From assembly GCF_964204645.1 (NCBI RefSeq), contig NC_134032.1, positions 6,002,275-6,066,274 on the forward strand: a DNA stretch of 64,000 nt. Reading direction: 5' to 3'. The position numbers and the translations under genes are program-made. Shown one piece after another: positions 8,523 to 35,747 of the stretch (the stretch's first letter is position 1; each line of letters starts with the position of its first letter). A model generated the notes under the pieces. It did not search any database and was not told the DNA's origin. It saw nothing but the letters and a program-made list of their open reading frames with translations. Source of the stretch: Tubulanus polymorphus (Eukaryota > Animalia > Nemertea).

Positions 8523-9924
8523 TTATTTTAGTTTTGTCGTTTTGTCATAATGTCGCCCTCATTTGCATATACGTGTTTTTTTTTACGCATGGCCCTTATC
8601 AGCCACCATACTAAAGCCTTAAGGTCGCGTATCGAGTTTTACGCTAAAACTCGATAAACACTTCAAGCGACACAGCGAACGATCTCCTTTCCCCCACAGC
8701 GAAAGCTAAACCTAGTAGAGGCTACTAGCCTATGTAGGCCTATGTATATGCGTAGGCCTAACATCCGGACAGATTGGTCGTAGGCCTATTGAATTTAACA
8801 ACCCACCTAAATATCTTTTTTTTAAATAATTAATTTTGTTTTGAAGTTCAATCCAATGAGTCCGTTAATAAACGCAACAATTGTACTGTGTTTGTTTGAT
8901 ACAGTAAAGCTCAGTACCGGTAGGCCTAAAGCCGCGTCAAACTCGATAAACACTTCAAGCGACACAGCGAACGATCCCTTTCCCCCACAGCGAACGCTTA
9001 CTCCGAATGTCAAGTGTGAGTCCAGCATACGGATAGGAGTGTGTTATATACTTGTATTTAGTAAACACCTTGTGCATTTGACAATGATCGGTATGTACTG
9101 TAAGAAATATAGAGTATTGATGGTATTGATATAGAGGTTGAAGCCCGCGGCCGAATAAAGTAATATATTCTTTTATTTTGATACCTCGTCGACATAACAG
9201 TTTTTCTCCGCTATATCTCTTCGGCGTGTTTAGTTTAGGCCTACGATTCCCCGGTACACTAAAGATTTATCTTAGTAAATACACGGTTAATTCGGTAAAG
9301 AAAAATAGAAATTGTTGTACTAACTCCTTGAAACCCGCAGCCAAATCACTGGTAGTAATAAATTAATTTAATACTCGATTTGATTCTCATGATGAGGAGA
9401 AACTCGCAGCTGATCCCCGGAACGACGTAACACACGTCGATTCGTCGATGTTTACGGCTCGACAGTGCTTTTAAAATCTAAAGTAGTAAATTTCCAGTGT
9501 ATCGGTAATATGATTTGATGAGGAAAATGGGCTATTGTAAAAATCACTGTTTGAAGACCGCGACTGAATTTGAAGTCTGCGGCAATAAATTAGTTCATTT
9601 ATACTTGAATTGATAATCGAAGTGACAGTCGGCCTGCGGGTTGATTTCGGGATGATGACTCGAAAAACATGTCGCCCCATTGAATGGGGCTAAATTTTCG
9701 ATGTTTACGGCCCGACAGCGCTTTTGTAACGATGATTCGTGAAAAAACACGCGGGCTATTTGTAGATCTCAGTAAGCTGAACGATATTATATGGATTGTA
9801 TATGAAACAGCGGTAAGGTAACAAAGCCTATGTTCTTTTGGTAAAAATAGTGTGGAAGAAATAATAATAATAATAATCACGCGGATATCAATAGGGTTTT
9901 CTGTGAAATAACAGAAAACCCAAA

Positions 9925-11444
9925 ATATGACACATGTAATCAATCATTCAGTAACAAAAGATATTATAAAGAACATTTAAAGTCTAAAACGTCATATTAG
10001 AAATATGAATAATGATATTTTAGGTGAAGATTATTTTGATAATGATAATGATAAGAAACAGAAGACAATTAAAAGAATAGAAAATAAAATAAACAATAAA
10101 AGGCTATACATGGAAGATGTAAGAAATTACATTAATTCATAAGATAATAGAAAAGAAATAGAAATAACCGAAGCATTTAAAAGCGATATTGGACCAGCTG
10201 CTAGTGCATTTAAATTTCATAAAGGTAAAACATTAGAAGAAAATAAAAAATATTTTGAAAATATGAAAAATATTAAAAGAATAATTACTGATGTTGAATA
10301 CCCTAAAATTAGTATATCTTCTAAAGTAAAATTTTTAAAATCTGAAGATAAACCAAAATATAATATGAATTCCCATCCACAACATATCATATCTAAACAA
10401 CACATAGATGATAGATTAAATAAATGTTATAATGAAATAAAAAGTAAAATAGAAGAGAAATATTTTGAAGGATCAGGTTTAATATTTGATGAAATAATAT
10501 TTATGACTTAACAAAGTTAACTAAATCAAAACCAATTGATGAAAATAATTTATCATATTATATAAAGATGATAATATAAATGGATCAAGTTATATCAAAT
10601 TACCATTTAAAACTAAAGCTGTTATAAATGTACAAAATGAAGATGATAAATGTTTTCTATGGTCAATTATAAGTTGCTTACATCCTGCAACTGATAATTT
10701 GTAGAATATCAAATTAGAAATCATTTGAAAATAATTATAAGATAGACAATTATCCTGTTAGAATTAAAAATATCCCAAAAATAGAAAGAGATAATAATAC
10801 ATTGTATAAAGATAAATGTGTTTGATTAATCAAATTACCAAAAACAAAAGGCAATAAAATTGAACATTTTACATTAGAGCCTTTATACCTATCAAAAGAT
10901 TATGATTCAAATGGTGTTATAGATATATTATATTATGAGAAACATTATATGTGGATTAAACAAATTATTAAACAATTTATTTTTAGAACAGAAAATGATC
11001 ACCATAAAATATATCTATGTAGAAAATGTATAACTAAATTCAATAATGAAAGGGCATTATTAAATCATAAGCAATTATGTGATAATCATGATTATTGTAA
11101 AATAGTTTTACCAAATGAAAAGGATAAAGTATTAGAATTCAAAAATATAATTACAAGAATAAAGTGCCATTTGTAATATATGGAGATTTTGAATCATTAA
11201 ATAAAGAATTAACTGATCAAGATTGAAAAGAAATATGTTATAAAAGAAAGAAATTAAATTCTAATGAAAATGATGTAATTGATTATTCAGATCCTCTAAT
11301 AACAAATACTATTAAAAAGATTCATCAATCAGCTGCAGCCTTTGGATTATATATAAAATCTGATTATCCAGAACTAATTAAAAGTGAATATTATCATTAT
11401 AGAAATGAAAATGTTATCAATCATTTTTGTGACTTATTAATTGA
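9925..11444 (+). pseudogene. polB: pPolB segment 2 (second zinc finger, N-terminal domain, exonuclease I motif)
   Basis: EGSG; GSSYIKLP..KAVINVQNEDDKCFLWSIISCLHP; CRKC..HKQLC; VPFVIYGDFES; several frameshifts. Confidence 0.9.
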
Positions 11445-13759
11445 CGGTTCCTGAACTTCGCTGAAAAAGCTGAAACGCTGAAATGCCGAAAATAAAACGC
11501 TGAAATTTCAGGGAATTTCCGAAAAACGCTGAAATTTCAGGGAATTCCCAAAAAATGCTGAAATCGTGCTAGGAACCGACAATACACCTTTTGAATTTTT
11601 TCCGGGCCGGAACCGCTGCCGGGTCCTGAACCTTTGCTTTTGTCTCTACCTAAATTTTGGTTATACAGACATGCATAAACAGTATGTATCAAAACCCTAT
11701 CACAACCGCACAAGCCAACTTCAAACACTATGCTGAATATTCCAAGAATGTGGTTTACTTCTACAAGACAAAAAAATCGTATTTGAACATTTCAATGTAT
11801 ATAAAATATGATTAGGAGAACCACTTTTCTTTTGTCAACACGTCACACATGACTATGGGCGACTGTGGTGTTCTCTGTTGGAGACTGAAGGTAAGTTAAA
11901 TTTGATAGCTAGTTATAATGATGATACGGCTTTTGGACAAAGGGGATCTTACTTAATTTCTTTTTAATTCATAGTGCGCATGGAATAGATTTAACAATTG
12001 CAAATAATGTATTTGCTGTGGAGAGAAAATCATCAGGTTTTGTTAAAGAAATGACATAGCATCTGTTAGATACATTTTTCTATCTATAAAAGGAGGAATC
12101 ATGGACCAATTAAGTTGATTTGCTAAGATGGACATGCAGATACCGAGAAAAGACTTCTTGTAGCAGCAGTGATTATATTTCATGCAATCAGATGCCACCA
12201 GTGAACTTCAACTGTGAAATTTGCAGCAGGGATAGCTAAACGACACAATTTTAAAAAATAAAATAAAACGAACGCTATTTCAGTAATAACTTGATTCAAC
12301 CAGAGAAAGATAAGTCGACAGCTGATGTACAGTAGTACCCCGCCTTACTTGGTTTTCCTGGGACAAAATGTGTAGTCTTTAAAAGTTAAGCGATATTCCG
12401 AGGTAACAAAGGGGATTTCAATAGAATACCAAGCAATGGACCCAGAATTCAAGCCCAAGCTAAGCGAATCTGTGGCTTTAACGCTTGATTCGGATAAAAT
12501 GTAGAACTGATTTCTTTTATGTATAATGTATAATGTATAACTTAAGCTGTTAATTAATATAGTTAGATAAGCGTTCAATCATTGGATCTTTCTTGTTGAC
12601 TCGTTTTATTTTGAGAGTTTAGAGTTCCAGTTAATCAACAATGTGCAGTGCCTAGCCTTCATCTACACTAAAGCCAAGCCTGTGTATGGAAAAATGTTGT
12701 TCGACTCTCATAGGCCAGACAAATCGGGGTATGAATGCAGATGGTAGTCTCCAGCAACTTGAGAAAGTTGCCCAAGTTTTGACCTCTACCCGGGGACGAT
12801 CCTTTAAGGCCTCCCAGTAGAAAATGTAGAAATATGAAACCCAATCAAAGCTATGCTGAGTACAATGACAGTTGAACCTTTATTTACGAATTTCAATGAC
12901 ACCGATAATAAAATCGAAATAACCAAATTTCGATGCTAGCACTTATTATGGGTTGTCAGGTTCAGCCTAACTGTACTTTCATTCAACTACTTCTTGTATG
13001 AAACGTAGAAATGAGAAGTTGCAAGGAATACAAGGGTTGCAAGGAGTACCAAACAATAATAAAAACAATTGAGAATTAGAATTACTGTAGTTAAGTGTTT
13101 ATTCAAATGAAGTGAAAACTTCATTGTTAGCTCATACAACATACATGCACATAAAACAATAACAACAATTTATATCATGATGCACAGACAAATGAAAGTA
13201 AAATATTATTTATTTATTTTCCATTTTGGGGAAGCATGATGGTAGTTTTTGGAACTGCAGTTTGAACTAATTTTTGGCTAGTAAGTATCCTGTTATACAG
13301 TTTGTCCTGAACAATTATTGTTCCTCCTGATTCAACTGATGATTCCGGCTCTTCTTGTCAATGAAATGAGGTCCTCCATCAATCGATCAAAAGTTGAGCT
13401 CAGACCACTCTTCTTCGCTCTAGCTACTTGGTCCGGCCATACGCATTTTCAAGCTACTAACCTATTAATTGTGGTCTGATGCCAGTTGAAAATGTTGAAG
13501 GGAGCCGAAGACAACGACCTTGTAGGCGTATCTGTATAACCCGAAAAAATCGGTAAAGACTAAAGCACGGTTTAGGTCCCGGCAGCAGACATCGGGCCCG
13601 AAAAATTTTTCAAAACGTGTATCGTCGATTCCTAGCACGATTTCAACGTTTTTCGGGAATTCCTTGAAATTTCTTCGTTTTTCTGGAATTCCCTGAAATT
13701 TCAGCGTTTTATTTTCAGCGTTTCAGTGTTTCAGCTTTTTCAGCGAAGTTCAGGAACCG
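11445..13759. mobile_element. Mutator/MULE-like non-autonomous DNA transposon
   Basis: ~185-bp TIRs starting CGGTTCCTGAACTTCGCTGAAAAAGCTGAAAC; perfect 9-bp TSD ATTAATTGA (11436-11444, 13760-13768); no transposase ORF. Confidence 0.85.
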
Positions 13760-13768
13760 ATTAATTGA

Positions 13769-14189
13769 GTATGAAATAAAATTTAATGAAAAGTTAAATG
13801 AAAATAAAGAAATAATTATGACAGAAGAAGAGAATGAATAATTTGAGTTTGCTGATAAATGTTATTATTGTGAAAAGACATTTAATTTTAGTTAATAAAA
13901 AGTTAGAGACCATGATCATTTGAATGGAAAGTTTAGAGGTTCAGCACATGAGAATTGTAACTTACAAGCTAAGAAAATTAACTTTTTTCCAGTTATATTT
14001 CATAATTTATCAGGGTATGATGCACATTTATTCATCAAGCAACTGTGCCATAAAATAGAAGAAATCAATAATGAAATAGAAAGAGTAAATTCAAATAGAT
14101 CAAACGATAAAATACCAACATATAAATAGTTCATTAGATAATTTATCAAAATCATTAGTTGATGATGAATTAAAAATATTAAAACAACA
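13769..14189 (+). pseudogene. polB: pPolB segment 3 (endonuclease VII-like insert, exonuclease II motif)
   Basis: CYYC..VRDHDHLNGKFRGSAHENCNL..PVIFHNLSGYDAHLFIKQL. Confidence 0.92.
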
Positions 14190-14694
14190 ATATAGCTGCA
14201 AAGCAGCGATAACGGGTTTTCTGGATGCATGTGATCGAAAGGAAAAATTAATTACCGGGTATTCGATGGAAAAAATAAAATGAGATGATTTTGATATTAT
14301 CGGAGCAATCCTCTTTTTGGTTGAATGGTCTAACCCCAGTATAGTCCCCCGTGATTTGGAAATTCTCGGAGCCCTCCTTTATTTACTTACTAAATGACGT
14401 CACAAACTGTTATTTCGCCGGTGCTTGTTGTCGAACAATTCTATTCAATTCTTTATTTACAGTAACCTAATAAGTAATTTTAAGTTTCAAATAGGATGGA
14501 AAGTACATTCAGACAATCTGTTGGTTCAGAGAGACCGTTATTACAGTATCAATTTATACATTTCGTTTCGAAGCTGTCAGTTGCCGAATCTGAATGAAGA
14601 TGAATTTTATTTGACGAAATCGGCGGAAAATATATAATAATAATAATCAACAGAATTTCAAGAGGGTTTTCGACGAAAGTCAGAAAACCCTAAT
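14190..14694 (-). mobile_element. short Helentron-type non-autonomous element (HINE-like)
   Basis: same TAGCTGCAAAGCAGCGATAACGGGTTTTCTG end and GGGTTTT..CAGAAAACCC hairpin end as 3966-9924; removal restores polB frame KQQ/YQNNDDFQLMRYKG. Confidence 0.82.
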
Positions 14695-16009
14695 TATCAA
14701 AATAATGATGATTTTCAATTAATGAGATATAAAGGAGCAATTCCATATTCATTATATAAAAATCATAATTATTTCAATATAACTAAATTATTAAAAGAAC
14801 AATTCTACGATGAATTAAAAAATGAATATATTGAAGATGAAGTCTATGATAGAACATTGAATATTTGGAATCATTTTAGAATGAAAAATCATGGAGAATT
14901 AGTAGATTTGTATCTAAAATCAGATGTGTTATTATTAACAGATATATATGAAAGGTTTAGAGATGTAAATCTAAAATATTTCAATATTGATCCTTGCCAT
15001 TGTTATTCTAGTCCGGGTTTAACTTGGGACTGTGGTTTAAAATTTACAGATATAAAAATGGATTTGTTAACAAATATAGATCAATGATTATTATTTGAAA
15101 AATCTATAAGAAGAGGAGATGCGGGTGTATTAGGTGATAGATATTTCAATGTAAATGATAACGCTGGATATAAATTATTATATATAGATGCAAATAATCT
15201 ATATGGTTGGGCAATGATGGAACCAAAACCTTATGGAGTATTTGAAATAAGTGAAGTTTTACAACATGAAAATAATGATAAATTTGATTGGAAGAAAAGA
15301 ATTCTAGATATTGCAGATGATTCAGATACTGGTTACTTCTTTGTTGTAGATTTAGAATATCCTGAAAATATTAAATTTAAATCTAGAAATCTAGCATACT
15401 GCCCCGAACATAAAACTGTTACGCATGAAGAATTATCAAATTATCAAAAAAGAATTAAACCTGAAAATCATATTCATACAGAAAAGTTAATGGTTACTCA
15501 GGAAGATAAATATAATTATGTAGTGCATTATAGAATGTTGAAGTTTTATCTAAATCAAGGAATGATTCTAAAAAAAGTACATAGATATATTTCATTCAGT
15601 CAATCTAAATGGTTAGAAAAATATATAGATTTTAACACCAAACAGAGAACTAAAGCTAAAACTGATTTTGAGAAAGATTTCTTCAAGTTAATGAATAATG
15701 CATTCTATGGTAAGACTTGTGAGAATATTAGAAATAGAAATGATATCGAGTTAGTTAGTAATGGTAAAAGAATTAGGCATTTACAAACATATCCTAAATT
15801 TATAGATAACAGAATATTTGATAAAAATTTAGCTGCAGTTAAAATGAGGAAAACTTCTATGAAATCTAATAAACCAATTTATGTTGGTGCTTCAGTTTTG
15901 GAAATATCAAAATTATTGATGTATGAATTTTACTATAACGTATTACAACCTCATTTTGGAGAAAAGCATATGGAAATCTTATATTTTGATACTGACAGTT
16001 ACATATTAA
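14695..16009 (+). pseudogene. polB: pPolB segment 4 (exonuclease III, polymerase motifs A, B, C)
   Basis: YLKSDVLLL; IDPCHCYSSPGLTWD; YIDANNLYGWAM; KLMNNAFYGKT; YFDTDSY. Confidence 0.96.
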
Positions 16010-16643
16010 CCCTTTAAGACTTTGATACATATTTATATGTATCATATTCAAATTGCGTTAAAACTTTGATACATATAAATATGTACTTTGGCAAATGAGT
16101 AATTTTCTCTGGTAGGAACAACATTATTCAAACTCTGGAGATTCAAGGTCAATGTAAAGCATCAGGAAAACATTTTTATCAATATTTTTTTGAGTTCTAC
16201 AGGATTTTGAAGGATAATATCATATAGTAGAACTACATCTCATGTGACAATAAGTGACCCTACATTCTTCGACTCAGACACTAGTAATTTAGACAGTGAT
16301 AGTGATGATATTATGCATTTTATTGATGGAAATAGCTGTCTAGTAGTCAAAATAAACATTCTACACCTTTTCTTAGTATATAAATTTTCTAATGATAATG
16401 TCCAGACCCAGGTTTTGCTCGCTACCCATACATGCCCAATTTTGCTTTCAATAACCCTAAAAAACAAAGGGCGCCCCTGCTAGAAAAAAAGTAAACAGAA
16501 ATAAAGTAGATCTATATATTACATCTATTTGCAGATATCCTATAATTTATAGAACTTTATTCATAACAGGTGTTTTAGAGCTTTGTTTGGACTTGTTCCG
16601 TGAAAAAATATCTAAAAATGTCCATGATAAAATTATTAAAGGG
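16010..16643. mobile_element. piggyBac-like MITE
   Basis: TTAA|CCCTTTAA ... TTAAAGGG|TTAA; removal restores polB frame DTDSYIL/KIKTNN. Confidence 0.85.
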
Positions 16644-16647
16644 TTAA

Positions 16648-17159
16648 AGATAAAAACTAATAACGTAACAGATGATTTAAAAACATAAAAACATCATTTT
16701 GATTTCAGTAACTATCCAAAAGCTGATGAATTGTTTAACAATGATAATAAAAAGGTGCCCAGGAAGTTTAAGGATGAACTAGGAGGTGAAGAAATGATAG
16801 AGTTTATTGGAATTAGATCTAAAATGTATTCATATAAAACTAAAACTCATGAAGCTAAAAAGTTAAAAGGAATTACCAAAAGTGTAGTAGAAAAAAATAT
16901 TCATTTCAAAGATTACATCAATTGTATATTTAATGAAGAAGTCAGAAAACATAAGATGAAATGTTTAAGATCTGAGTACCACGAGATGTATATTGTAGAA
17001 ATAGAGAAGATAAGTCTAAACCCATTTGATGATAAAAGATATATTTTAGATGATGGAATTCATACAGGTGCTTATGGTTGCAATTTAGATGAATACTTAA
17101 AATTTAAAAGAGAAGAAACAAAAGAGAATGAGATTATGAAAAGGTTTATTACATGTTAA
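16648..17159 (+). pseudogene. polB: pPolB segment 5 (C-terminus)
   Basis: FDFSNYP..KFKDE..EFIGIRSKMYS..KKLKGI..SLNPFDDKRYI. Confidence 0.93.
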
Positions 17160-17189
17160 TTCAATTTTAATAAAAAATATGTTATTAAA

Positions 17190-17543
17190 ATGTAGAGTAA
17201 ACAAGCACACAGTGAGAACAACAAATCATTTCTAGATAGGATAAAAGATATCACAAATGCTAAATCTGTAGATTATAAATTTTAGAAGTTAACAGAATTA
17301 ACAATTCATAAGAAATATCTAATTACAAATATTGATACAGTTTCTAACAAATATGGAGATAAATTAGTTATTCACTTAGAATATGAAGGATTGAAAGGAA
17401 ATAAATATAAATTCAGAACATATTTACCAGATAGATTTCATAGATTATCAAGTGAAGATTTAGAAGAATTATGTTCAGGTGATTTCTATTTCATATACAA
17501 AGGTAAGAATGAAAAAGGGCACCATGAAATAGATTTCGAATAA
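17190..17543 (+). pseudogene. small Polinton ORF (~117 codons, two in-frame stops), function unknown
   Basis: M*SKQ..KLTEL..KYLITNI..SNKYGDKLVIHL..FRTYLPDRF..FIYKGKN..IDFE; fills the gap between polB and the next gene. Confidence 0.6.
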
Positions 17544-17557
17544 AATATGTAAAATAA

Positions 17558-18314
17558 ATGGTAGAATTAAAAGAATACAGAATATTTGTTGATTCTAGAA
17601 GACTTACAAATTATAAATCACATAATTTACTAGTACAATTAGATAGAGAATTTAAGAATTGTGTAGATTTAAATTAGTAAATGTAAGTTTATGTAATTCT
17701 TTTTATAACATATCGAATAAAACTATTGAACATGGAGCCTTTTTAATTTTTGATAAAAATAAAAATGAATGGTCCTATATAATATTTAAAACGGGGTTAT
17801 ATATTTTAGATACATTATCGCAAGAAATAAATAGAAAAGTCTGGCACAAGTTAGGTAGTAATTCCGGGTTTAGTATTAGATTTTTAAAAAGTGAGAGTTC
17901 TGATTAAATAAAGATAAGGTTGTCTAATAGTGAAAAACATAAATTTATGGTAAAAAACCTATAGCTAAACTGTTAGGAATTCCACCAGATAGATCTTTTA
18001 CACATATTGATGCTACAACAAACTTAATACCTTACACACATTTTTATATTTACTGCAATTTAATTGACCCTTTAAAAACTTTCGAAGCAACTAAAGATAT
18101 AACTAGTAATTCTAGTATATAAAATATTTTACCATTGAAGAATGTTAAAGAATTTGGAATGCAAATAAATTAAAATTTAACAGAATGTGATTTCAAACCA
18201 TGCATTCCTCAATTTAATAATTTTAGATTAGAAAATAGAAATCACAGTGGATACTTAATTGATTTAAAAAACTTTCCTGTAATTTATGAATTAGTTATAA
18301 GTTGTAAAGAGTAA
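17558..18314 (+). pseudogene. probable minor capsid (penton) protein, frameshifted
   Basis: IFVDSR..SHN..VQLDREF; SLCNSFYNI; KTGLY; FYIYCNLID; RNHSGYLIDLKNFPVIYEL, pattern resembling Polinton single-jelly-roll mCP. Confidence 0.65.
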
Positions 18315-18331
18315 TTTTTCACTATATAAAT

Positions 18332-18665
18332 ATGAATATAACTGTTGGACCGAGTATATGTTTTGGGTTTGATTTTAAACATGGTAAAGAAATGAGAATT
18401 AAACTAAATGATTACTGATATTAAACGTAAATCATTTAATAATGCATCAATGATTAATAAAGGAAATTATAATATAGAAAAGGTAATTGATTTAATTAGA
18501 ACACCATTAGAATATTATGAATTAAATGAAGATGGAATTATCGATGATATTAAAAACATATTAACTGAAATATATGATAATCATAAAAGTAGTAATGAAA
18601 TAAATGTTGAAATAATCATAAATAAGATAACTAAATATTTTGAAGATGGTAATTTTTTTGATTAA
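18332..18665 (+). pseudogene. hypothetical Polinton protein
   Basis: ORF 18408-18665 plus upstream ATG region; no recognisable motif. Confidence 0.4.
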
Positions 18666-18668
18666 TAA

Positions 18669-18889
18669 ATGAGTGATAATAAGTGGATAATAAATGGATT
18701 ATATAATCGTGCCTTCCTATCATTTGGAGCTGTTGGTTATTCAATGGTATTAAAAAAGTATTTAAAATGGGAAGTGTTAATGTTGATAGATTTGATATCA
18801 ATGATATTTTGAAATTAACATTAGCAGTAACTTTATCTAATTTAACAATTGATTATTTGGAAAAACAAAAATATATTCCTCCTATATAA
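18669..18889 (+). pseudogene. small predicted membrane protein (frameshifted)
   Basis: MSDNKWIINGLYNRAFLSFGAVGYSMVLKK / ILKLTLAVTLSNLTIDYLEKQKYIPPI; ATAAATG start. Confidence 0.55.
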
Positions 18890-18911
18890 ATGCGTAAATT
18901 TTGTTAAATAA

Positions 18912-19335
18912 ATGGCATCTGCAATTATAACTATTATAGGATCGGCAATTGTTAACGCTTTGGCATTTACTGGTGGTGGATATTTATTTAAACATATTGA
19001 TTAAAATGGATCATTATCAGAACAAAAAAGACATAATTTAGCATTAGAGAAATATAATATAGCTGCAGAAGAATACTGAGAAAAAAGATAAAACTATATG
19101 GATTACATTAACAAAGAATTACATAACCAGAAAATTACACATAGAGATTTTCAATCAGTTGATGAAGCTATGAGTTTATATAATGCAGTAACAAATAAAG
19201 AAAAATTTTATCTATACAAACCTAAATTATCAGATTATTATACACCAAGTAAAGAACAACAACAATATGAAATAATTTGGATTTATAGGTGGAACTGTTA
19301 TTGTATTATTTGTTTCATATAAATTTACTAATTAG
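18912..19335 (+). pseudogene. predicted membrane/coiled-coil protein
   Basis: MASAIITIIGSAIVNALAFTGGGYLF..EQKRHNLALEK..MDYINKEL..PKLSDYYTPSKEQ plus hydrophobic tail; stops present. Confidence 0.6.
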
Positions 19336-19354
19336 TAATTTCTTTTCTAAATAA

Positions 19355-19729
19355 ATGGATGATAAAGTTGATAATATTGATATTATTCCTCATGATATAA
19401 ATAAAACTAAATTAAAATTATATTTAGAAAAACAAATATTAGAATTTGAAAATGACTTAAAGATAAAAAAGAAAAAATATTTAAAATCTAAAATTATATA
19501 TAATTTTATTATTAGTGGATCGGTTACAATTAGTTCTGTAATAACATTTCTAGCATTATTCTCACCATTAACACCTTTAGTTATCTCAATTGGAGCTTTA
19601 GGTTTAAGTTCAAGTGTATTAACCGGCATAAGTTCAAAATTAAATATAAAAAGCTATAAAGAAAAAATAAAATCTAATATAAAAGAAATTAATAAATTTA
19701 AAAAAAAATTAGATTATATAATAAGTTAA
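19355..19729 (+). CDS. two-TM membrane protein flanked by coiled-coil-like segments
   Basis: IIYNFIISGSVTISSVITFLALFSPLTPLVISIGALGLSSSVLTGI; ATAAATG start. Confidence 0.6.
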   Translation: MDDKVDNIDIIPHDINKTKLKLYLEKQILEFENDLKIKKKKYLKSKIIYNFIISGSVTISSVITFLALFSPLTPLVISIGALGLSSSVLTGISSKLNIKSYKEKIKSNIKEINKFKKKLDYIIS

Positions 19730-19805
19730 AATGGTAATATAACAGTTGAAGAACAAGATAAATTATTTAAAGAATTAATAAATTATTAATTTTTTTATTA
19801 TATAA

Positions 19806-21192
19806 ATGGGGTTTCCAAAAGCTTTCCAATATAATAAATGAATTAAATATAATATTCCAGCAATAGATTTCAATAAAGATATTTCATATGGAAATGAAGT
19901 TTTAAATTCATTAATTAATTTAGATATTTATGTTACTGAAAGTAATCATTTTAATGTAAAGATGGAAAATATATTCAATGTTTATGAAATTAATTTTGAA
20001 AAAGAATTAAGTAAAGCAAAATTATGGATGTTAAAATCAAATATGCAATTCTGGCAAAACCAATTAAATTTTGCAGTTTATTGTGCAACAGCAGGGTGTG
20101 GTATGAGTTGGAATAATCATTTAAATGAACCAAATTTACCATTGATATTATCGCTCTTTAGATTTCATACATACTTAAATAAGATTAATATTAAATGAAT
20201 TAGAGTGTCCTTTACCAGGATCTAGATATTTTAAAGAATTAGATAATAGTATTAATTTATCAAAGTATTATAAGATATGTAATGAATTTAATATAGATAT
20301 AAATGATTCTGATTTTAGATCAAAGATGGGAACAATTACAGTGGGAGATTTATCTAAAGTAGAGAAAGCTATGGATGCAATGAATAATTCATCATTTCCA
20401 ATCGGAGGTTTTGCTGTCCCTTATACTAAATAATATAGAAAAACAATAAAAAATATTAACCAAAAAACGTTTAAATGGAATGAAATACCAAAATATTATA
20501 TCTATATCAAACAACAACAAAATAATGATGGTTGGATTAATTTCATTTTAGAAAATAGTGAAGGTTTTACAAAACCAGGTATACAAAGAATAAATCAATC
20601 TATTAGAACTTATTTGATTTGTATATTAGGATCACAGGTTGAAACAAGATCCCCAATAATTGGAAATTTAAATACTTCATTTGACGCGCAGAAACAATTT
20701 AAAGTTTTATTTGAAGATTCCATTCATAATGATAAAAATAGATCGATTCCAGAAAATATAGTCAGGTACCAAAATTATTTAGATGAATCACATGTAAGAT
20801 TGAATTATTGTATAGGGCCCAATTTATTAATTATTTCTAATGATTTAATATTACAAATGGGAAATATAATTGGTTATAATAATCTAATTAAAACTGCAAC
20901 AATACATAATAAGTTTCGATTAGATGACATAAATAAAACGATTATTACTGCTCCAAAATTAATGGAAGGTGAAAAAAAATTAAAGAAATATTCAATCCAC
21001 TGAAACTAAAACTAAGAATATTAAATTAAATAATGATTCTAAAATAAAAGATTACATACATCAGAAAATATAAAAACTGATATTATTCAGCATGATATAA
21101 TTAAAACTAATAATGATAATAAATCACATGAAAATACTAAATTAGCTATAACTTGTATAGGAATTGTAATTGTAGGAATATTATGTTTTTAA
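19806..21192 (+). pseudogene. Polinton protein of unknown function (~450 aa) with C-terminal TM
   Basis: fragments FWQNQLNFAVYCATAGCG, FRFH, CILGSQVETRS, DAQKQF, ending LAITCIGIVIVGILCF. Confidence 0.6.
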
Positions 21193-21214
21193 ATTTTAAT
21201 TTTTTATCATATAA

Positions 21215-22919
21215 ATGGATGAAGAAATTCCATTGGATGACATGGATCCTTTAGATGAACCTGGTATAAGTGATGAACCACAACCTGATTATAATGAAAC
21301 TAATATTGATAATGAAGTTGGATCAGCATATAATACTAATTTAGGTGAAGATGATTCTAGTGGGCCTATATTATATGATTTTGATGAATTTAAAGATGAT
21401 ACTATAACAGATAAAAAATCAAAAAATTATTTAGAATCCCACTATGAGATGATAATTAAAACTTGACCAGAAAGAAAAGATTTAATAAATAGATTAGAAA
21501 GAACAGAAAACCCTGAATTGAAAAAAGAATTATTATACATAAAACATAGTGTAACAAATACAGTTATTGAAGAATTATTACCAAAAAATATAACAGATAA
21601 CATTGAACCAGAAGATATTTCAGAACAAATTAGAGAAGATGATCCACATTTCATGAATAATTTAGAATTTAAAAATGATTCATGGAATTATAATGTTGAA
21701 TTAAATAACAAAACTGTATCAATTCAATTATCTAAAATGGGACAAGAAGATCTGTACCATCCTGAAATGCGTGCAGGATCTTCAATTGAACGTTGAAAAG
21801 GTGGTTCAGAATTTCTCAGAATTATATGGAATGCACTCGATAGAATACATGAAGGAAAACCAAATCCGAATATTGATATTAACAAATATTCACCATTTAA
21901 AAATCCAAATTTAAATCCTACTTATGTTGATCCAGAAATGGAAGAGTATGGAGATCGATTAGATAAATTATGAACTTCAACACCAGAAACATCGAGAAGA
22001 GATATTCAACAAATTGATAATGATTCAAGACAATTACAATTAGTATTAGAAAAACAAATTGATAGATTAAGAGATTCAGAAGAAGAGATGAATAGTACTT
22101 TAGATACATCTCGTACTGGAACAAATCAAATACAACATTTATTAGAAAAAGGATTACTTCATTTAAATGAAGAACAATTAAAAATATTTCCAGAACAAGC
22201 ACGTAGAGAAATTAAAGGTATGCAAGAATCAGCTGGTGAAATTGCTAATATTAAGATGAGATTTTCTAAAATAACCATGTTAGAAAAAGAATTAACTGAT
22301 GCAAATGAAGAATCAAAACAATTAGAATTAGATAAAGATCTTCAAGTAATTGATGAAGTTGAATATGAATGCAGAACGTTAGCTTTAGAAAAAGAAATTG
22401 ATGATTTAAAATATAACAAAGAATTACAGGAAAAAGAAAGAGATGTATTATTGAAATCATATGATCTTAATCATATTAAAAAATTTAAAGTTATTTTTAA
22501 AGATTTAATAATAAAACCGGATTCTAAAATATCATTAAAAGATAGAATAAGATTATTATTTAAATTAGAAGGTATAACAATTCTTTCAATTCTAACAGCG
22601 GTAACTATGATATTTACAACAATTGGTTTAGCTATTTCAAATTCATTAAAATCTACACCAAATGATAATACTACCAAATGATAATAATTCTATACAAGAT
22701 AAAGTGAAAGATGGTTTAAAAAAATTAGCAAAATATCTATGGGAACTATCTAAAAAATCTGCTGCATCATTACTTGGAATTATTGCATCAATTGTTGGTT
22801 TTATATTGAAATCTGCTGGAAATATTCTTAACTTTGCTGCTGAACATATTATTTTATTTTTAATTACTGTTGCAAGTGCAATTATTTTTGGGTTAGTGAA
22901 TATGATCAAAAATAAATAA
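21215..22919 (+). pseudogene. large acidic/coiled-coil protein with C-terminal membrane segments
   Basis: ORFs 21215, 21518, 22088, 22662 are collinear; EGITILSILTAVTMIFTTIGL, LLGIIASIVGFIL, HIILFLITVASAIIFGL. Confidence 0.6.
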
Positions 22920-22939
22920 TTAATATTTTTGTTAAATAA

Positions 22940-24130
22940 ATGAGTGGGAGTTACATGAATCCTTCTAAGAATTCTAGAATATCTAATGCTATTAAAGCAG
23001 AGAGATCGCATCATATTATTACTCATAATCATTCTAATATTAATCCCGATGAAACTTTATATGTTAGAATCCCTCGATTAAAACAACATACTTTTTATGT
23101 TCCAAATAGTATTTATTTATCAGCTGATATAAAAGTAACTGGCCATGATAATAATTATGTTGTAGATAATGTTGGGAGATATCTAATTAAAAAATTAACC
23201 ATAAAGATTGGACCAGAAATAGTTTTTTCATTAGATGATTATAATTTATTTATGCATTAAGATTTATGGTTAACAAAAGAAAATAGAAAAAAATATGATA
23301 TTTCGAGGCATCCAATCAGAAAACATAATAAATTAAGATCAGAAGCTAATAATGCAATAATAACTAATGCTACAGATAATTTGATTAAAAAGATTTATGG
23401 AAGCAAATATAAAATTCCATAAGACTTTGAATTGATAAATAATAATGCACCTTTGTATAAATATGCAATTCATGAAGATATTATATTCGAAATAACATTT
23501 GCTCCCGTTAATGAAATTGTGCTATCTAGCGTTGTTAAAGATATGGGTTATAAATTATCGAATATATGTTTAGAATATGATACAGTAACTGATGAAAATA
23601 TTGCTAGCATAATTCAAACTCAATACAATCAAGGATTTTCTTTATTATGTGATTTTATTGATAAATTTAAAACTGTAACTATTAATGCAAGTGATGAAAT
23701 AATTAACTTCCCAAGAAGATCTATTAAAGGTATATTAATATTTTTTTACCATTGCAACATATTCTTTTCGTGCAATAAATGTTGATAATTATTACAATCC
23801 GGAAATAACAAAAGTAGAAATAACTATCGAATGTATAGAAAATAAAATATTTTGCCAAGGAATGAGAATGATTGATCAGTGGCCAGAAATTAGAAAACAT
23901 TTTATGAATGAAAAAATAAATATAATAAATATGCATTATGGTTAGATTTTAGAACAACTGAGGATAATTTATTACATGGTTCTGGGGAAAAACTACAGAA
24001 CACTAAAGATGGAATACAACTATTCATGACAAAGGAAAAAGGAAGCTTAAATTTCAAAATGCACATTTATATTATATATGACGCGCAATTAAATATTGTT
24101 GATTCTCAATTTAATAGTGTTATGTATTAG
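22940..24130 (+). pseudogene. probable major capsid protein (double jelly-roll), frameshifted
   Basis: ~395 codons of beta-rich sequence: THNHSNINPDETLYVRIPRL..YVPNSIYLSADI..NVGRYLIKKLTIKIG..LSNICLEYD..PRRSIKGILIFF..YNPEITKVEI..LWLDFRT..LHGSG; size and position fit MCP. Confidence 0.72.
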
Positions 24131-24162
24131 AATTTCAGTTTTAATAAAAAATTCTATAATAA

Positions 24163-25373
24163 ATGGATGAAGGTAAGTTATATGAAAGAATAAATGCTGA
24201 TAAAGAAATCAATGATGATTTGTATTATGTAATACCTTATAAAAGAATAAATGAATATATTGGAACATTTTTATTAAATGAATTAAATCAATACAAAGAA
24301 TATCTAATTGAACGTAATAATGATATAAAAAAAAGATAATATAGGTAATGATAATATAGATATTATACCTTCTACATCTAATAATAAGAATATTGAAACT
24401 AAAAAAAGATGATAATATTGAAACAAAAATAGAAAATAATGTTGAACCTAAAATAGAAGATAATATTGAATCTAAAATAGAAGATAATATTGAAACAAAA
24501 AAAGAAGGTAATGTTATACCTTCTAAATTGAATGATGATAAGATTGAACCTGATATTAAAACCAAAAAGACAAATGAAAAATATTGTGACGTATGTAAGA
24601 AATATATATCACATAAAAATTGGGCAACTCATAAGAAATCAAAGAAACATGTAGAAAAAGAAAAGAATAATAATATCATAGATAAAGTTAATACAATTGA
24701 AACTAATGATACCATAGATAATATAACAGATAATGTTGATACAATTGAAAATAATGATAATGAAACAATTGATGATTCTAAAAAACATTATAATGTTTGT
24801 AATTTAGATATTTCTAAAAGTAATTTTTCTAAGCATAAAAAATCTCAGGGACATATAGAAAATGAAAGGGAGTTAGAAGAACATGAAAAGAAATTGGAAA
24901 GAAATAAAACGTGTCAATATTTTAATAAGAGAATTGAACCTGTTGATGAAAATACTCATTATAAATCAAAATTACATCTAATTAATGTTTATAAAAATGA
25001 AAGTATGATACCATTGTTAAATAACCCAATGAAATGTATCAAATATTTTGATCCTAAAACTAAACAATATTATATATTCTATAAGTTGTTATTTGAAAAA
25101 TTATTAGCTTATGCAGAAGATAATCCTAAACAAATATATAAATTATCATATTCGAGAAAAATAGATTTAAGTTATCTAACAAAAAATTTTGGATATCATT
25201 TTGATTTCTATTTTGATGAATACTTTGAAAAATTAAGAAAAGAAGGTAAGATACATACTAATTATTATTATTTGATGGCTCAACTGAAATTAATAAATCT
25301 ACCTAAGCATTATTATGGATAAGATATAAACCAAGATGACTTTATAAACTTACTAGAAACAAAATTAGAATAA
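24163..25373 (+). pseudogene. protein with 8-aa repeats and three U1/matrin-type C2H2 zinc fingers
   Basis: IETKIENN/VEPKIEDN/IESKIEDN repeats; CDVCKKYISHKNWATHKKSKKH and two degenerate copies; ORF 24393-25322 with frameshifted N-terminus. Confidence 0.7.
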
Positions 25374-25385
25374 AAATTGTTAATA

Positions 25386-25888
25386 ATAACTATTTATATA
25401 TCTATGTAGTAGACGTACGTAAGAATCCAAGAATCCAAGAAAGTAAGAAAGTACTCATACGTCTAGTACATACATATATAAATTAGTTTTCTTAAAAATT
25501 AAAAATATAAATTATTAATTGAAGTATAGAAATAGTTATAACATAATCTATTTTTATTTTATTGAGTGAAAACATATAATTTATTCATTTTTATATACTT
25601 CATTTAATAATTGATATTTGTAATTATCATAAATATAAATTATATATATAAATAATTTATATAATTTATATATTTGTACCCCTGTGTAAACATAAATTAT
25701 AAACATAGTTTTAATATATAATTTATTCATTATTATATATTTCATTTAATAATTTTTAAAAAACTAATTTATATATCTATATACTAGACGTATGAGTAAG
25801 AATCCAAGAATTCTTACTTTCTTACTTTCTTAGCAAGAATCTTGGTTTCTTACTCATACGTCTAGTACTTAGATATTTAAATAGTTAT
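25386..25888. repeat. large inverted repeat whose two arms are each hairpins, at the meeting point of convergent gene blocks
   Basis: 28-bp stem TACTAGACGTATGAGTAAGAATCCAAGA (25782) / TCTTGGTTTCTTACTCATACGTCTAGTA (to 25867), 1 mismatch; degenerate inverted copy at 25386-25500. Confidence 0.85.
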
Positions 25889-26496
25889 TTTATAAATTTA
25901 TATTCATAAGGAAATTGAAGCCTCAGTAATAATTTTGAGCCTTTATTACTTTTTAATGTATTCATATATTCATCATGTAATTCAGTAGGTATAATTTGAT
26001 TTTCTTCCAGAGATTGTTGCATAGATTTTCCATCTTTATTGTAGAATAAAACTAAAAATCTAATGTTTTCTCTAAAGGGTTTAACAATTGAATTATATTT
26101 TTGATTTAAAACCCATGTTGTTATCCCAAAATGTCTACCAGAGAAAGCTAAATAACATAACTCACTTTCTCTAACTTTTGAATCATGTAAATTAGCACAA
26201 TCATCTATAATGAATAATGTATTTGATACTTTATAAATATCTAATGCTATTTTAATACAATTATCTAAATTTTCTTTTACTGTTTTAGGATCTAATATAA
26301 TAAACTTTTTTATCTTAACTATATCTCTATTATATGTTTTATTCATTTCATACGTGGGGCAGAATAATATTATATTATCAAAATGATTCTAATAAATAGT
26401 TTCTAACAAATCTAGTATGAAATGTGTTTTACCACAATTTGTTACTCCAGTAACTAACATATTATGTGGTTCAAATATAAATAAATCTTTATTCAT
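25885..26496 (-). pseudogene. A32/FtsK-like genome packaging ATPase (one in-frame stop)
   Basis: MLVTGVTNCGKT (Walker A), LFIIDDCA (Walker B), SGRH..LNQ. Confidence 0.92.
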
Positions 26497-26497
26497 T

Positions 26498-27527
26498 TAT
26501 TCTTTTAATTTTACTAAATTAAATTTATCATCATACCCTTTATATTTCACTAAAGAATACTTTTTTCCTTTAAGAGTTTTTGTTTTTATTACCTTTTTTG
26601 TATCCTAATTCATCTGGATTTGGTACAAGTGATAATTCTTGTTCATAAAAATAACCTAATATTTCTTCATCTTTTAAATTTTCTAATTTATAAACAAATG
26701 GTTTAGTTAATATTATCTTTTTGATCTTGAATATTTCTTCGGTAAAATTTGGAGGTATAACCTTTATAAAATGTTTTTCGATATTTAGATATTCTAACAT
26801 GTTGTCCAATTTTAAATTTAGGTTCACCGAAATCATGTGTAACAAATGCGTTATATAAATTATTCCAAACTATTTCTGAATTATCTTCTTTTCTTGCTTG
26901 TATAAGTTTCATACCAATACTTGAATGTTTAGAATTATTATAACCTTTAACTAAATCATCTAATACATCGATATATTTATATGTTTCATTTGCTGTAAAA
27001 TATTTCCACATTCTAGTTTTCAATGTTTTATTAAATCTTTCTATAATGGATGCTTTTTTTATCTGAGTGCATTGAAGAATACTCTACATCGTTTTCAGAT
27101 AATAGTTTTTTAAAATGTTTATTATAGAATTCCTTACCTTCATAAAATTGTATCTTACCTGGAATAGCTTCTTTAAATATTGATTTAAAGGTATTAGTAA
27201 CTTCTATACCAGTTTTATTTTTTGATTGGTATACTCCATGCTTATCTACTGAATATATCTATAACATATATATCTATTCATGTTTATTAAATCTGCTTGC
27301 CATTGTTGATCAATATATGAAACCATAACTTTTCTTGTTAAATAATTCTTATCCATTTTCTTATGGATTTGATATGTCGGTTGATTTTGCAACCACAATT
27401 TTGATTCACTATATTTTATATTTTCTTTATCAGATTTAATTTTATCCCATAATTCTGAAATACTAGAATATGATACTTCACTCTCTGGGTTATAATATAA
27501 ATCTCTTAAATATTGTTCTTTGTTCAT
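26498..27527 (-). pseudogene. int: retroviral-type (rve) integrase with C-terminal chromodomain-like region
   Basis: LYYNP..WLQNQPTYQIH; QWQADL; GKEFYN; ASIIERFNKTLK; YNNSKHSSIGM; FKIGQHVRI; FYEQEL; LVKYKGY. Confidence 0.93.
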
Positions 27528-27606
27528 CTTCTTTTAATCCATTAATAATAATCTTGGTTTATTTTCAATGGTTTTATCATTTGACTTATTTTCTGGTATA
27601 ATAGGT

Positions 27607-27897
27607 TTAATCATCGGAATCATTATTATTAGATTTGGATTTATATTTATTTATTACGCCAGAAAATATAATAACTGTTACTAATCCAATTGTAATATAT
27701 AATTTACTATTACTTCCAGCATTAGAAGAATCAGATGGATTATCATTCGAATTAATAACAGATAATTTCTGTGGTTCATTTACATCAGTTAATTTCTTTT
27801 TCTTAGCTCTTTTTAACTCTGAAGATCTTTTACCGAATTCCCTTGCCCATTTAATTTGTTTTTCAGATCTAGGCTTCTTCTTAACATCATCACTCAT
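27607..27897 (-). CDS. small basic protein with one TM segment
   Basis: KKKPRSEKQIKWAREFGKRS..LYITIGLVTVIIFSGVI; ATAAATG start. Confidence 0.55.
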   Translation of the reverse strand: MSDDVKKKPRSEKQIKWAREFGKRSSELKRAKKKKLTDVNEPQKLSVINSNDNPSDSSNAGSNSKLYITIGLVTVIIFSGVINKYKSKSNNNDSDD

Positions 27898-27904
27898 TTA
27901 TTTT

Positions 27905-28458
27905 AGTTAATTTTTGTTCTGATTCAATATCTTCTGATTTATTTTTATCTTTGTATTCTATAGGTTTGATACTAGAAAATGTTATAACTCCAGTGGAAAT
28001 CAATGTCATTATTCCTCCTAATTGGAATGAAGCGTATCCAACCTATTTTTGAAGTTCTGTCATAACTAAATAATCATTTTTTAAATCACTATATAATTTA
28101 TTTTCATCATCAATTGGTATAATCCGGTTACATAACTTAGAGTAATATTTAACTATTCCATCACTAATAGAGTCATTTATTCTAGCTAATCTAGCTTCTT
28201 CATATATTTTGAAATGTTTGATTACTTTATCTGGTTTCATGGCATCTAGTTCTTGAAAAGTTAAAATTTTTCCGATAAACATTTACCACTAGCAATTAAT
28301 AATTCTAGATGGTGCTTACATGTTAAATAGTATTCAAAATCAATATTATTATCAACTTGAGCACAATTAGAAACAACTGTATCTTTATTATCTGTAATAT
28401 CTAAATCCTCAATTGTCTTTTCAATATCGGTATTATTCTTATTAGATTTCTTTGACAT
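27905..28458 (-). pseudogene. hypothetical Polinton protein with C-terminal hydrophobic segment
   Basis: ORFs 28458-28261 and 28282-28043 overlap across a frameshift and continue past a stop. Confidence 0.55.
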
Positions 28459-29227
28459 TTATATTAAAAAAAGCGCAAAGAAATATTATAAGTATTCTTC
28501 AGATGATACTAATAACTCTTTGGGTTAATACTAGTGTCTCTTTGGGTTAATACTAGCTATTTGAAGTCATTGTTTTTTAGTATTTTTTATTTGTGATATA
28601 AAGTATTCTCTTTTTGAAAAGAAATGCAAAAGAAAATATAAAAAATATAATAGAATTCACTATCTATTTGAAGATATGTAATTTTTATTTAAATCTTATC
28701 AAAATCTATTCAATCTTGTGCCAATTAGAATTGCCAAAAGAAAATATTAAAAATATAATAGAATTCACTGGCTAGTTGAAGTAATTGTTTTTTTAAATAC
28801 TTCTTATTTAAATTAGGATTCAATATCTCATTACAATTGTCTATCTATTAGGAGCAATTTAATTGTCCAGATATTTCGGATCCTCGATAAAAAATCCTCA
28901 ACTGAAAATCAATTCAACGAAAACACCGGGTGGAAATACTATTTCATAAACACATATATTTATTATGCAAATTTTAGCGATCGAAGATAGAACAATGAAA
29001 AGCGGTCCTAGAAGACCGCTTTTGCTTCTGCGCATGCGCCAATTATATAATTTATTCCGTAAACTACAACATTCAAACATAGAACAGTAACCAATCAATA
29101 CAGAACAGCCGTCGCCATCAACAACGACCGAACGACTAATGCATAACAATACAATATTAAAGCAGATATACACAATCAAGAATACACTTTTTGATATCTA
29201 TATTACAAAGATCTTCAGCGTTATAAT

Positions 29228-29974
29228 TTATAATTTCGTCCAGAAATCTTTAATTACTAAATCGTTTTCAATCATTTCTTCAATTTCTGGTAAATAGTTG
29301 ACAACTTCACTAAATGTTAAACTTAATGATTGGAATTTTTCATATTCTATCAATCTTCCCTCTCTTCTCAGTTTTCTTTCCTAACCGGTGCTGATTTCTA
29401 TGTTCTTTTTTACCCAAGCCCCCCAAGAAATCCCCTCAGTTTTTTTGTCGAACATGTTAAACCCTATAATCAAATAACTCCCGAAAATGATGTGATCCCA
29501 TAAGTGATTTGCTTTTCTTTTTAATATTGTCTTATAACTTATTTTTAATATATTAGTAATTTTTTCAAATGAAATAACTTCACCAATTTGTATTTCTGGA
29601 AAGTTTAAATGTTCTGTTTCAATAATTAATTTTGATTTTAAAAACTTATTCAACTCTTCTCCACTCATTTTCAATTTCTCGAGTCCCGACAGCAATTCAG
29701 ATTCCTTGAGTCCCAACAACAATTTCAGGTTTGTTGTTGGTAATTTTGGTAATTGTGGTTCGCGTGGTAATTGTTTATTATGAATTATGTCACCCAACAT
29801 TTTCGTCATTTCTTTATGATAATCCAAATGTTTTTATAATTTGTTTAAAGTTTGATTGTCAATAACTTGAGTTCCTTCCTCCATTTCTGTTGAATCCTGT
29901 GAATAACTATCCATCGGCATTGGTTCCTCTTCCGATGGTTGCCTTGGAATTTCTGGTCGATCTCTGTATTCCAT
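29228..29974 (-). pseudogene. ~248-aa helical, possibly DNA-binding protein (two in-frame stops)
   Basis: MEYRDRPEIPRQP..in frame with ORF 29827-29381..GISWGAWVKKNIEISTG*ERKLRR..IKDFWTKL. Confidence 0.65.
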
Positions 29975-29980
29975 TTTAAT

Positions 29981-30213: not shown

Positions 30214-30382
30214 GGCTTAATGAGATTAATTAATTCTTTACAATTTAAATGTAACAGAAGTTTACTAAAACACCCGATAATACTCAACCAGCAATATAGT
30301 TGAGTATTATAAGCGCTTATAAAGATTCAGTATGTGGGCAATTCTGCGAACTACTATTCCATAATTCAACAAATGTCTTTGT

Positions 30383-30958
30383 TTAATCTAATTGCTCCAA
30401 ATATAACTGAAAATCTAGTTTGTTCGTTTTAATTTTATTTTCCTTCTTTTCAAGAGGCCTTAAATTTCTCCAATTCCATACCAATTTCTTATTGCGTTCA
30501 TCATTCATGTTAAATTTAGAAATCGGCAACACATGATCAATATGAAAGTATTCGTCATAATTATTTATATTCATTTCACCTTTAAACTGATTTATAATCC
30601 ATGATTTTAAGAATTCATCTGTACAACCCAACAAATTAGATAGTGTGTATGAGTGTTTGTCTTTACTGAATAATTGTGATAATCTAATTCTTAAACATTG
30701 TTTCAATTTAAAATTAAAATCTGTATGCTATTTTTCTTTATAATAATTTCTATTATACACTTTAATATGTTCTAAATGATTTTCTTTCCACTGCTTATGT
30801 TTATCTTTGCGTGTTTCAGTATTATTTCTATAATTTTGTTTGTCACTTAGTTTACTACAAGTTTTAAAATAACTTTGCTTACCATCTTTCTGAGTTTTAT
30901 GATTATAATAATCTGTAAATGCCTTATTCAATTCACATTTTGAACATTTCTTGTAGTA
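30383..30958 (-). pseudogene. HNH-type endonuclease with N-terminal Cys motif
   Basis: KKCSKC..KDGKQSYFKTC; LGCTDEFLKSWIINQF..MNINNY..FHIDHVLPISKF..NWRNLRPLEKKENKIKTNK. Confidence 0.8.
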
Positions 30959-30973
30959 TATATTTAGAGAATA

Positions 30974-31007
30974 TATTTTTCACTTTTATGAACTCGACCT
31001 CTCGACC
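30974..31007. repeat. truncated right terminal inverted repeat of the Polinton
   Basis: TATTTTTCACTTTTATGAACTCGACCTCTCGACC is the reverse complement of 3615-3648 with 1 mismatch. Confidence 0.85.
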
Positions 31008-35746: not shown

Positions 35747-35747
35747 A

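Follow-up and report, generated by a model that had tools for sequence, protein, structure and literature searches.

TAAATG gene starts resembling poxvirus late promoters in a decayed polinton-like provirus and its relatives

Introduction

The chief mark of virophages at the sequence level is that they mimic a helper's promoters; such mimicry has been documented in protist systems whose helpers are mimivirus-type viruses or pacmanviruses. The late motif of Cafeteria roenbergensis virus (CroV) precedes all mavirus genes (PMC6723459), and among the endogenous mavirus-like types only the one carrying the CroV motif was reactivated on CroV infection (PMC10945749). The link to poxviruses made previously is the co-packaging of three insect polinton-like viruses (PLVs), without promoter analysis: PLVs were found in entomopoxvirus occlusion bodies, in a report whose available text holds no promoter, motif or transcription analysis and one supplement of which does not contain the word "promoter" (PMC11296320; here and below, published work is cited from those parts of each source that were available). 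Here we describe a decayed polinton-like provirus in a 64,000-nucleotide stretch of contig NC_134032.1 (the window) and its partial relatives in other sequence collections, in which genes of every class start with TAAATG behind a run of T, and we consider it probable that this signal is a late promoter of poxvirus type, and that a pox-like cytoplasmic virus infecting the same cell supplies the RNA polymerase that reads it.

The literature searched, which lay mostly outside subscription journals and included PMC8363768, PMC10120064 and 10.1101/2022.07.28.501842, showed no earlier report of TAAATG or a pox late promoter on polintons or virophages. The signal makes a question testable, namely whether some animal polinton-like proviruses are helper-dependent, and on which helper; if the proposed reading is true, pox-like viruses are predicted in hosts for which none has been described.

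Results and discussion

The sequence-only reading of the window had cited ATAAATG at 11 gene starts. All 11 ATGs have ATAA immediately 5', and intact homologs put 10 of them at the N-terminus or no more than a few codons from it, the start at 21215 resting on the beginning of its open reading frame (ORF) and on gene order. Across the 15 starts that can be placed, 11 read TAAATG. The one at 18332 reads TAAATATG and TAAAATG stands at 17190 and 29974, so that three more retain TAAA no more than a few bases from the ATG; no such sequence precedes the integrase ATG at 27527. Set against the other ATGs of the element the enrichment is strong (11/15 starts vs 34 of 538 other ATGs, Fisher p = 3e-10; p = 2.5e-9 when recomputed at 11/17 window genes), and ATAAATG itself occurs at 11 of the 538 other ATGs in 17100-31000. 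As a motif, ATAAATG needed trimming: the TAAATG core is conserved, while at 135 starts in relatives the base before it is A in 58, T in 55, G in 12 and C in 10, and ATAAATG as the core was rejected, dropping to 19/60 in the highest-GC class. The AATTTTT said to precede it often is literally present at 3/11 cited starts; a TTT run at -16..-11 stands at 7/11, and the remaining 4/11 are A-rich there.

Conservation was assessed in relatives found with an ATPase profile. Of the 229 metagenome stretches that the profile matched, 126 stood up to confirmation; the best 80 of these were used, together with three from genome contigs. These loci are all partial, at most 12.4 kb. For gene counts, 10 near-duplicate loci were dropped, and an ORF was retained if it had at least 80 aa and if two or more other loci held homologs of it. 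TAAATG begins 135/152 genes in 41 loci vs 3/103 in 24 loci of other lineages, and 133/141 in the 39 dereplicated loci left after removal of decayed L056 and L064; counts per locus are two-peaked, with TAAATG at almost all starts or almost none. By family, it stands before 38/41 ATPases, 12/12 major capsids, 10/13 integrases, 5/5 minor capsids and 26/26 copies of a conserved 160-220-aa gene, as well as before lineage-specific genes, the deoxynucleoside kinase of L005 and the HNH gene of L006; for polB it rests on one intact start, in L030. The signal thus covers replication, integration, capsid, membrane and accessory genes, and neither its supposed absence from polB and integrase nor its restriction to structural genes held in intact relatives. 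Its apparent lack at the window polB and integrase is likely due to decay, and the 5' end of the window polB cannot be placed. Of the proposal that a co-infecting virus transcribed the structural genes, the pox-late-type promoter is supported and the limit to structural genes is not.

In an ATPase tree of 76 sequences (75 loci and the window piece; eight loci had no usable ATPase), most TAAATG loci fall into three well-supported clades, which have 6, 17 and 25 rows. The tree does not resolve the branching order between these and two clades lacking TAAATG (4 and 6 rows); 18 further rows form the outgroup. The TAAATG label requires seven changes on this tree, at least four of them forced, and a single origin is neither shown nor excluded by it.

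The element is 75-80% AT and ORF callers favour ATGs soon after stops, so the signal had to be weighed as an artefact of base composition and of ORF calls that begin at the first ATG behind a stop; we regard this as highly improbable. From low to high GC class, TAAATG begins 22/25, 51/56 and 60/60 genes, the last at GC of at least 34%, whereas equally AT-rich sister loci have it at 0/4 starts (L017, 20% GC) and 0/2 (L019, 24%). Shuffled upstream windows gave a mean of 6.9 and a maximum of 15 vs 133 observed, so the enrichment holds over a composition-matched background. The TAA before the ATG could also serve translation, as a stop for termination-reinitiation on long transcripts or for frame insulation, and the tight packing of genes, with TAAATG in 11/11 abutting pairs, fits this. 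Yet just 11/141 starts abut an upstream stop, and TAAATG is present at 51/52 starts whose upstream neighbour lies on the opposite strand, a class that may include spurious neighbours. The triplet before the ATG (n = 152) is TAA in 135 cases, TAG in one and TGA in none, although TGA and TAG make up 49/135 stop codons at gene ends (TAA 86, TGA 29, TAG 20). Variants such as TAAATATG keep TAAAT while losing the in-frame stop, and the fixed T-run described below is left unexplained, which makes a translation signal very unlikely. Composition and stop-start coupling were accordingly rejected by the GC-class, sister-locus, shuffle and opposite-strand-neighbour controls, and the motif survives all three caveats first attached to it (AT-richness, A-rich start context, stop/start overlap). 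A splice acceptor was also rejected, positions -2 and -1 being A in 94% and 91%.

Upstream of TAAATG lies the second part of the signal. Counted from the A of the ATG, T occupies positions -15 to -12 in 56, 86, 67 and 72% of starts, with C or G at -14 in 1%, vs 31% T at -14 in 171 control TAAATG sites that are not starts. TT occurs within -15..-12 at 110/133 starts vs 45/171 controls (p = 1.5e-23), and the T-run is kept in 64/71 cases in which -14 falls inside another conserved gene. Measured from TAAATG, it lies 9-12 nt upstream, with T at 0.62-0.92 at nucleotides 9-11 in the 17- and 25-row clades. The TAAATG signal is therefore real, clade-wide and two-part, with fixed spacing. In the vaccinia late consensus, TAAAT is followed by a G that overlaps the start codon, and the 10th nucleotide upstream is a conserved T among weaker ones; vaccinia intermediate promoters are without that T (PMC11980589). 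At the level of motif and spacing, the signal matches this published late consensus.

Where divergent genes lie 4-6 nt apart, TAAATG is kept on both strands (L012:1427-1436, L015:1017-1026, L014:1585-1596), and a TTAA or TTATAA palindrome is where the two initiators of such close pairs overlap. Another class of upstream sequence, TTTTAATAAAAAA, sits about 8 nt before the initiator of the 114-aa, minor capsid (L005) and zinc-finger genes; it is seen in the window at 17148-17192 and 24122-24166 and in L002, L005 and L006, and resembles A-rich intermediate-type promoters. A-rich sequence lies upstream of 12/36 ATPases and 2/2 zinc-finger genes vs 2/12 major capsids, and a split into intermediate and late genes by class is only suggestive.

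Host RNA polymerase II (Pol II), perhaps with an element-encoded cofactor, might instead read TAAAT in the nucleus as the mark of a transcription start, the virus being autonomous and its pox likeness a matter of convergence or shared ancestry. Several conserved genes have no matched function, and expression of coral polintovirus genes has been recorded with no helper known (PMC11131425). We nevertheless find this unlikely. A TATA box at the usual distance is under-represented at TAAATG starts (6 vs 14.1 shuffled), and T stands at -3 in 134/141 starts, with a purine at +4 in 126/141. T at -3 is disfavoured by the Kozak preference, so these would be poor start contexts if transcribed. AATAAA shows no excess at gene ends once AATAAATG starts are excluded (23/122 vs 24.6), an apparent excess of 50/122 vs 25.6 having vanished with that exclusion, and it is not avoided in coding DNA (226 vs 228). 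The 9-12 nt spacing, moreover, suits pox late promoters (PMC11980589), and tight spacing of such a kind does not suit a classical Pol II complex according to a paper on African swine fever virus (ASFV; PMC7163114). Hairpins at gene ends show no excess (mean z -0.19). The pox early terminator TTTTTNT, which is not used as evidence, is slightly rarer in coding DNA than expected (59 vs 78.6, z -2.7; z -1.2 in other lineages).

A different cytoplasmic helper with a TAAA-type initiator, either an undescribed non-pox large DNA virus or a linear virus-like element (VLE) with its own polymerase, was weighed as well. Yeast VLEs start transcripts at TAAAN with 5' poly(A) slippage (PMC6211774), some iridovirus promoters contain AAAAT or TAAAT (PMC5294985), and the asfarvirus-like TATA version found in the same family, described below, implies that helpers vary. 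Against such a helper, the upstream ATNTGA of yeast VLEs is not enriched at TAAATG starts (8 vs 9.2 shuffled), and a T-run with TAAAT fused to the ATG is the arrangement reported for poxvirus late genes; we judge it quite unlikely. The CroV late motif TCTA is likewise not enriched (21 vs 21.4 shuffled). Motifs of yeast-VLE, mimivirus-early, CroV-late, baculovirus-late and nimavirus type were all rejected, none being enriched at starts; the baculovirus-late and nimavirus-type patterns were used in their generally known form.

We therefore return to a late promoter of poxvirus type, served by a pox-like virus, as the probable reading. Each gene would have its own promoter, and a pox-type polymerase acting in trans would start transcripts in the AAA of TAAAT and, by slippage, add a 5' poly(A) leader; initiation and slippage of this kind are described for vaccinia and yeast VLEs (PMC6211774). 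The leader would replace the unfavourable T at -3 with A, giving a good start context beside the purine at +4. Neither the window nor 47 partial loci showed an RNA polymerase gene, and in those loci no ORF other than polB reaches 490 aa. With one late promoter on all genes and no polymerase of its own, the provirus should stay silent until a helper infects, after which it might copy its DNA inside the helper's factory, using the polB that it encodes, in the manner of mavirus with CroV.

Several observations weigh against this reading. In the 6-row clade TAAATG is not accompanied by a clear T-run (T 0.38-0.54 at nucleotides 9-12), and elsewhere the T peak stands at the 11th nucleotide, one off the vaccinia figure. 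The polB ORF of L028, near-identical sister of L030, stays open past the L030 start to the contig end. The deoxynucleoside kinase of L005 has no named poxvirus match among 38 homologs, and the coral polintoviruses, whatever their kinship to the TAAATG family, are transcribed in ordinary samples (PMC11131425). The AATAAA test separates groups poorly (other lineages 15/91 vs 9.6), and because all loci are partial and several conserved genes have no match, a polymerase or transcription-factor gene may yet be present.

That kinase (L005:10340-10981, minus strand; PF01712) is an accessory gene with its own T-run and TAAATG, and it has three close homologs at 60-67% identity, the others lying below 39%.

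In the two nearest clades without TAAATG, a TATA lies at most 30 nt from the ATG in 29/33 genes (shuffle mean 13.1, max 21). Twenty of these 29 lie within 9 nt of the ATG, too close to be boxes of the TATA-binding-protein type. TT precedes TATA by 10-14 nt in 22/29 cases vs 45/102 TATAs in coding regions (p = 0.003, an optimistic value, as the pattern was spotted by eye and then tested on the same loci). Starts with a T-run and TATA were seen in L017, L018, L019, L021, L022, L023, L025 and L027, most clearly at 47-49% GC in L023 and L025, and to judge from their layout they resemble asfarvirus late promoters. The outgroup loci have no clear start motif (TATA 34/70 vs 27.3 shuffled, max 36). 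Helper switching may be readable from gene starts, as the sister lineages with TATA suggest. A broader picture, in which these are pox/asfar-class virophages forming a widespread family of integrating polinton-like viruses that switches between T-run with TAAATG and T-run with TATA, with starts that record helper switches, undiscovered invertebrate pox-like viruses as helpers and intact copies acting as infection-triggered antiviral proviruses of animals, is tentative and, taken as a whole, doubtful. The window copy is decayed and cannot itself serve as a defence provirus.

The provirus occupies an AT-rich island at about 9850-30990 (19-31% GC in most 1-kb bins, higher in a nested insertion) of a repeat-rich chromosome stretch (Table 1). 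We identify the island, by its gene content, as a decayed polinton-like provirus: it holds polB, an A32 ATPase, an rve-chromo integrase, a major capsid of the 415-aa type, a likely minor capsid and about 10 conserved small or membrane genes, most of them interrupted by stops or frameshifts. No terminal inverted repeats are recognisable in the window; among the relatives, whose contigs are partial, L076 has arms of 133 nt, L030 of 26 nt and L028 none. The window polB is 40-43% identical to polB of the outgroup loci L066, L076 and L069, and it gave no tblastn match to polB of the TAAATG loci L028 and L030; L075 has a superfamily-1-type helicase in that place. Replicase mosaicism is thus apparent among these loci (window, L066, L069, L076, L028, L075).

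An intact homolog of the major capsid was modelled with a pLDDT of 86.5 from a 24-row alignment (a 10-row alignment gave 42.8), and Foldseek matched the model to the iridovirus major capsid protein (E 3e-16, TM about 0.6), the mavirus capsid (3e-11) and also that of PBCV-1 (Paramecium bursaria chlorella virus 1), so the predicted fold is a double jelly-roll. The family is large, with 126 clusters at 50% identity and E values up to 1e-30; ATPase records under a bacterial label excepted, no named member appeared in the 20 clusters looked up. The minor capsid family has no Pfam or PDB match, and its penton identity is one that we take from a penton-like motif. The 442-aa homolog of the 380-440-aa gene has no Pfam, PDB or Atlas match, and the homolog of the two-helix membrane gene has a weak SLATT-like match below the cut-off (PF18142, E = 0.0013); SLATT and holin-like genes are frequent in such viruses (10.64898/2026.10.13.758929). 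No match to an adenain protease was found among 46 window pieces or 43 ORFs of intact relatives, the loci being partial. The zinc-finger and ATPase genes converge, and between their 3' ends the window has about 500 nt of non-coding sequence that holds nested inverted repeats, each 59-64 nt long. In L002 and L006 this gap measures about 160 nt, so the extra length is likely a small insertion.

Elsewhere, a viral contig collection yielded no true relative, its sole match (L001) being an unrelated phage-like contig, and an annotated phage collection held no match to the ATPase or polB. The host of the window provirus is likely an animal, as we presume from the fit of the neighbouring BEL/Pao element and the Gypsy element with a baculovirus-F-type envelope to animal genomes.

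Table 1. Provirus genes and surrounding repeats, in window coordinates
Feature	Position	Strand	Remarks
Protein-primed family B DNA polymerase (polB) gene	9851..17159	+	stop-broken, three insertions; 5' end not identifiable; PF03175 weak, E=0.002
Insertions inside polB	~11445-13759, ~14190-14700, ~16020-16640		first with 151-nt terminal inverted arms, 91%
Decayed 114-aa accessory gene	17190..17543	+	start TAAAATG after A-rich box; tblastn of L005 ORF E=1e-15
Likely minor capsid (penton) gene, broken	17555..18314	+	TAAATG; homolog L005 254 aa; conserved family in alignment
126-aa family gene, broken	18327..18665	+	start TAAATATG; N-terminus matches L005 ORF; T-run upstream
75-80-aa membrane-protein gene, broken	18666..18889	+	T-run and TAAATG; homolog-supported
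139-aa membrane-protein gene, broken	18909..19322	+	TAAATG; 73% identity to L005 ORF
144-aa two-helix membrane gene, broken	19352..19789	+	T-run and TAAATG; homolog L005:2541-2975
Conserved 380-440-aa gene with C-terminal hydrophobic segment, broken	19803..21192	+	T-run and TAAATG
350-485-aa coiled gene with C-terminal hydrophobic segments, broken	21212..22919	+	T-run and TAAATG; C-terminal half aligns
Major capsid protein gene (predicted double jelly-roll), broken	22937..24130	+	T-run and TAAATG; 67-80% to intact 415-aa homologs
Variable zinc-finger-like gene, broken	24160..25322	+	A-rich box and TAAATG; N-terminus matches L002 ORF
A32-type packaging ATPase gene, broken	25885..26499	-	TAAATG; PF04665 E=1e-5; 80% to L002
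rve integrase and chromodomain gene, broken	26518..27527	-	start context decayed/uncertain; 59% to L002/L006; homologs PF00665, PF00385
Basic protein with membrane anchor	27607..27900	-	TAAATG; homolog-supported
Conserved 160-220-aa gene, broken	27890..28461	-	T-run and TAAATG; 76% to L002/L005 ORFs
ORF pieces	29381..29974	-	start TAAAATG; no Pfam match, without homolog support
HNH-type nuclease gene, broken	30353..30952	-	5' end not identifiable; 39% to L006 ORF; PF01844 weak
BEL/Pao pol remnant (PF05380)	502-3105		
Palindromic repeats and 31-bp satellite, ~79 copies, after BEL/Pao remnant	5700-8520		
Gypsy long terminal repeat (LTR) retrotransposon	35323-46278		long ORF pieces, chromodomain integrase, baculovirus-F-type envelope; LTR segments 92-99% identical
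Nested inverted-repeat elements	48901-61778		arms 48901-49407/61271-61778 (96-99%), 51129-51582/57069-57516; 73-nt subrepeats

Comparison with known systems

In gene content the element shares with Polintons/Mavericks (adintoviruses; PMC8502044) a protein-primed polB, an rve integrase, an ATPase, a major and a likely minor capsid and a likely animal genome as its residence, and its relative L076 has terminal inverted repeats; it differs in the missing adenain match and in a conserved set of membrane-protein genes, and no promoter is described in the available part of that report. The entomopoxvirus PLVs (AHEV_PLV1/2, CBEV_PLV1, Ca_PLV1), compared here by description only, are likewise associated with animals, linked to poxviruses and mosaic in their replication modules, whereas they have an adenovirus-type protease and a mu-like protein, AHEV_PLV1 and Ca_PLV1 have no known integrase, unlike the window family, and their pox link is co-packaging (PMC11296320). 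Yeast VLEs (pGKL; PMC6211774) are also protein-primed linear elements with a TAAA initiator and, as we would predict here, 5' poly(A) slippage; they have an RNA polymerase and a capping enzyme of their own, use an upstream ATNTGA and have no capsids, and neither the enzymes nor the motif were found in the TAAATG family.

The late promoters of vaccinia virus and entomopoxviruses have the same TAAAT fused to the start codon and a T-run about 10 nt upstream, with a 5-7 nt spacer (PMC11980589, PMC5294985, PMC3061580). The putative promoter described here differs in that its T peak falls at the 9th-11th nucleotide, that it stands on all gene classes and that it belongs to an element in which no polymerase gene was seen. 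Mavirus and endogenous mavirus-like elements (EMALEs) of type 4, with CroV as helper, are likewise integrating small double-stranded DNA viruses with polB, an rve integrase, an A32-type ATPase and jelly-roll capsids, and in mavirus too one late-promoter motif precedes all genes, the other motifs of related types being read as those of other helpers (PMC6723459, PMC10945749). Here the motif is a T-run with TAAATG, not TCTA, the host is likely an animal, no protease was seen and the capsid is only about 10% identical to that of mavirus in the structural match; dependence on a helper is proposed here from motif likeness. Without classing the element as either virophage or adintovirus, we think it likely that TAAATG works here, by analogy, in the way that helper-promoter mimicry works in virophages.

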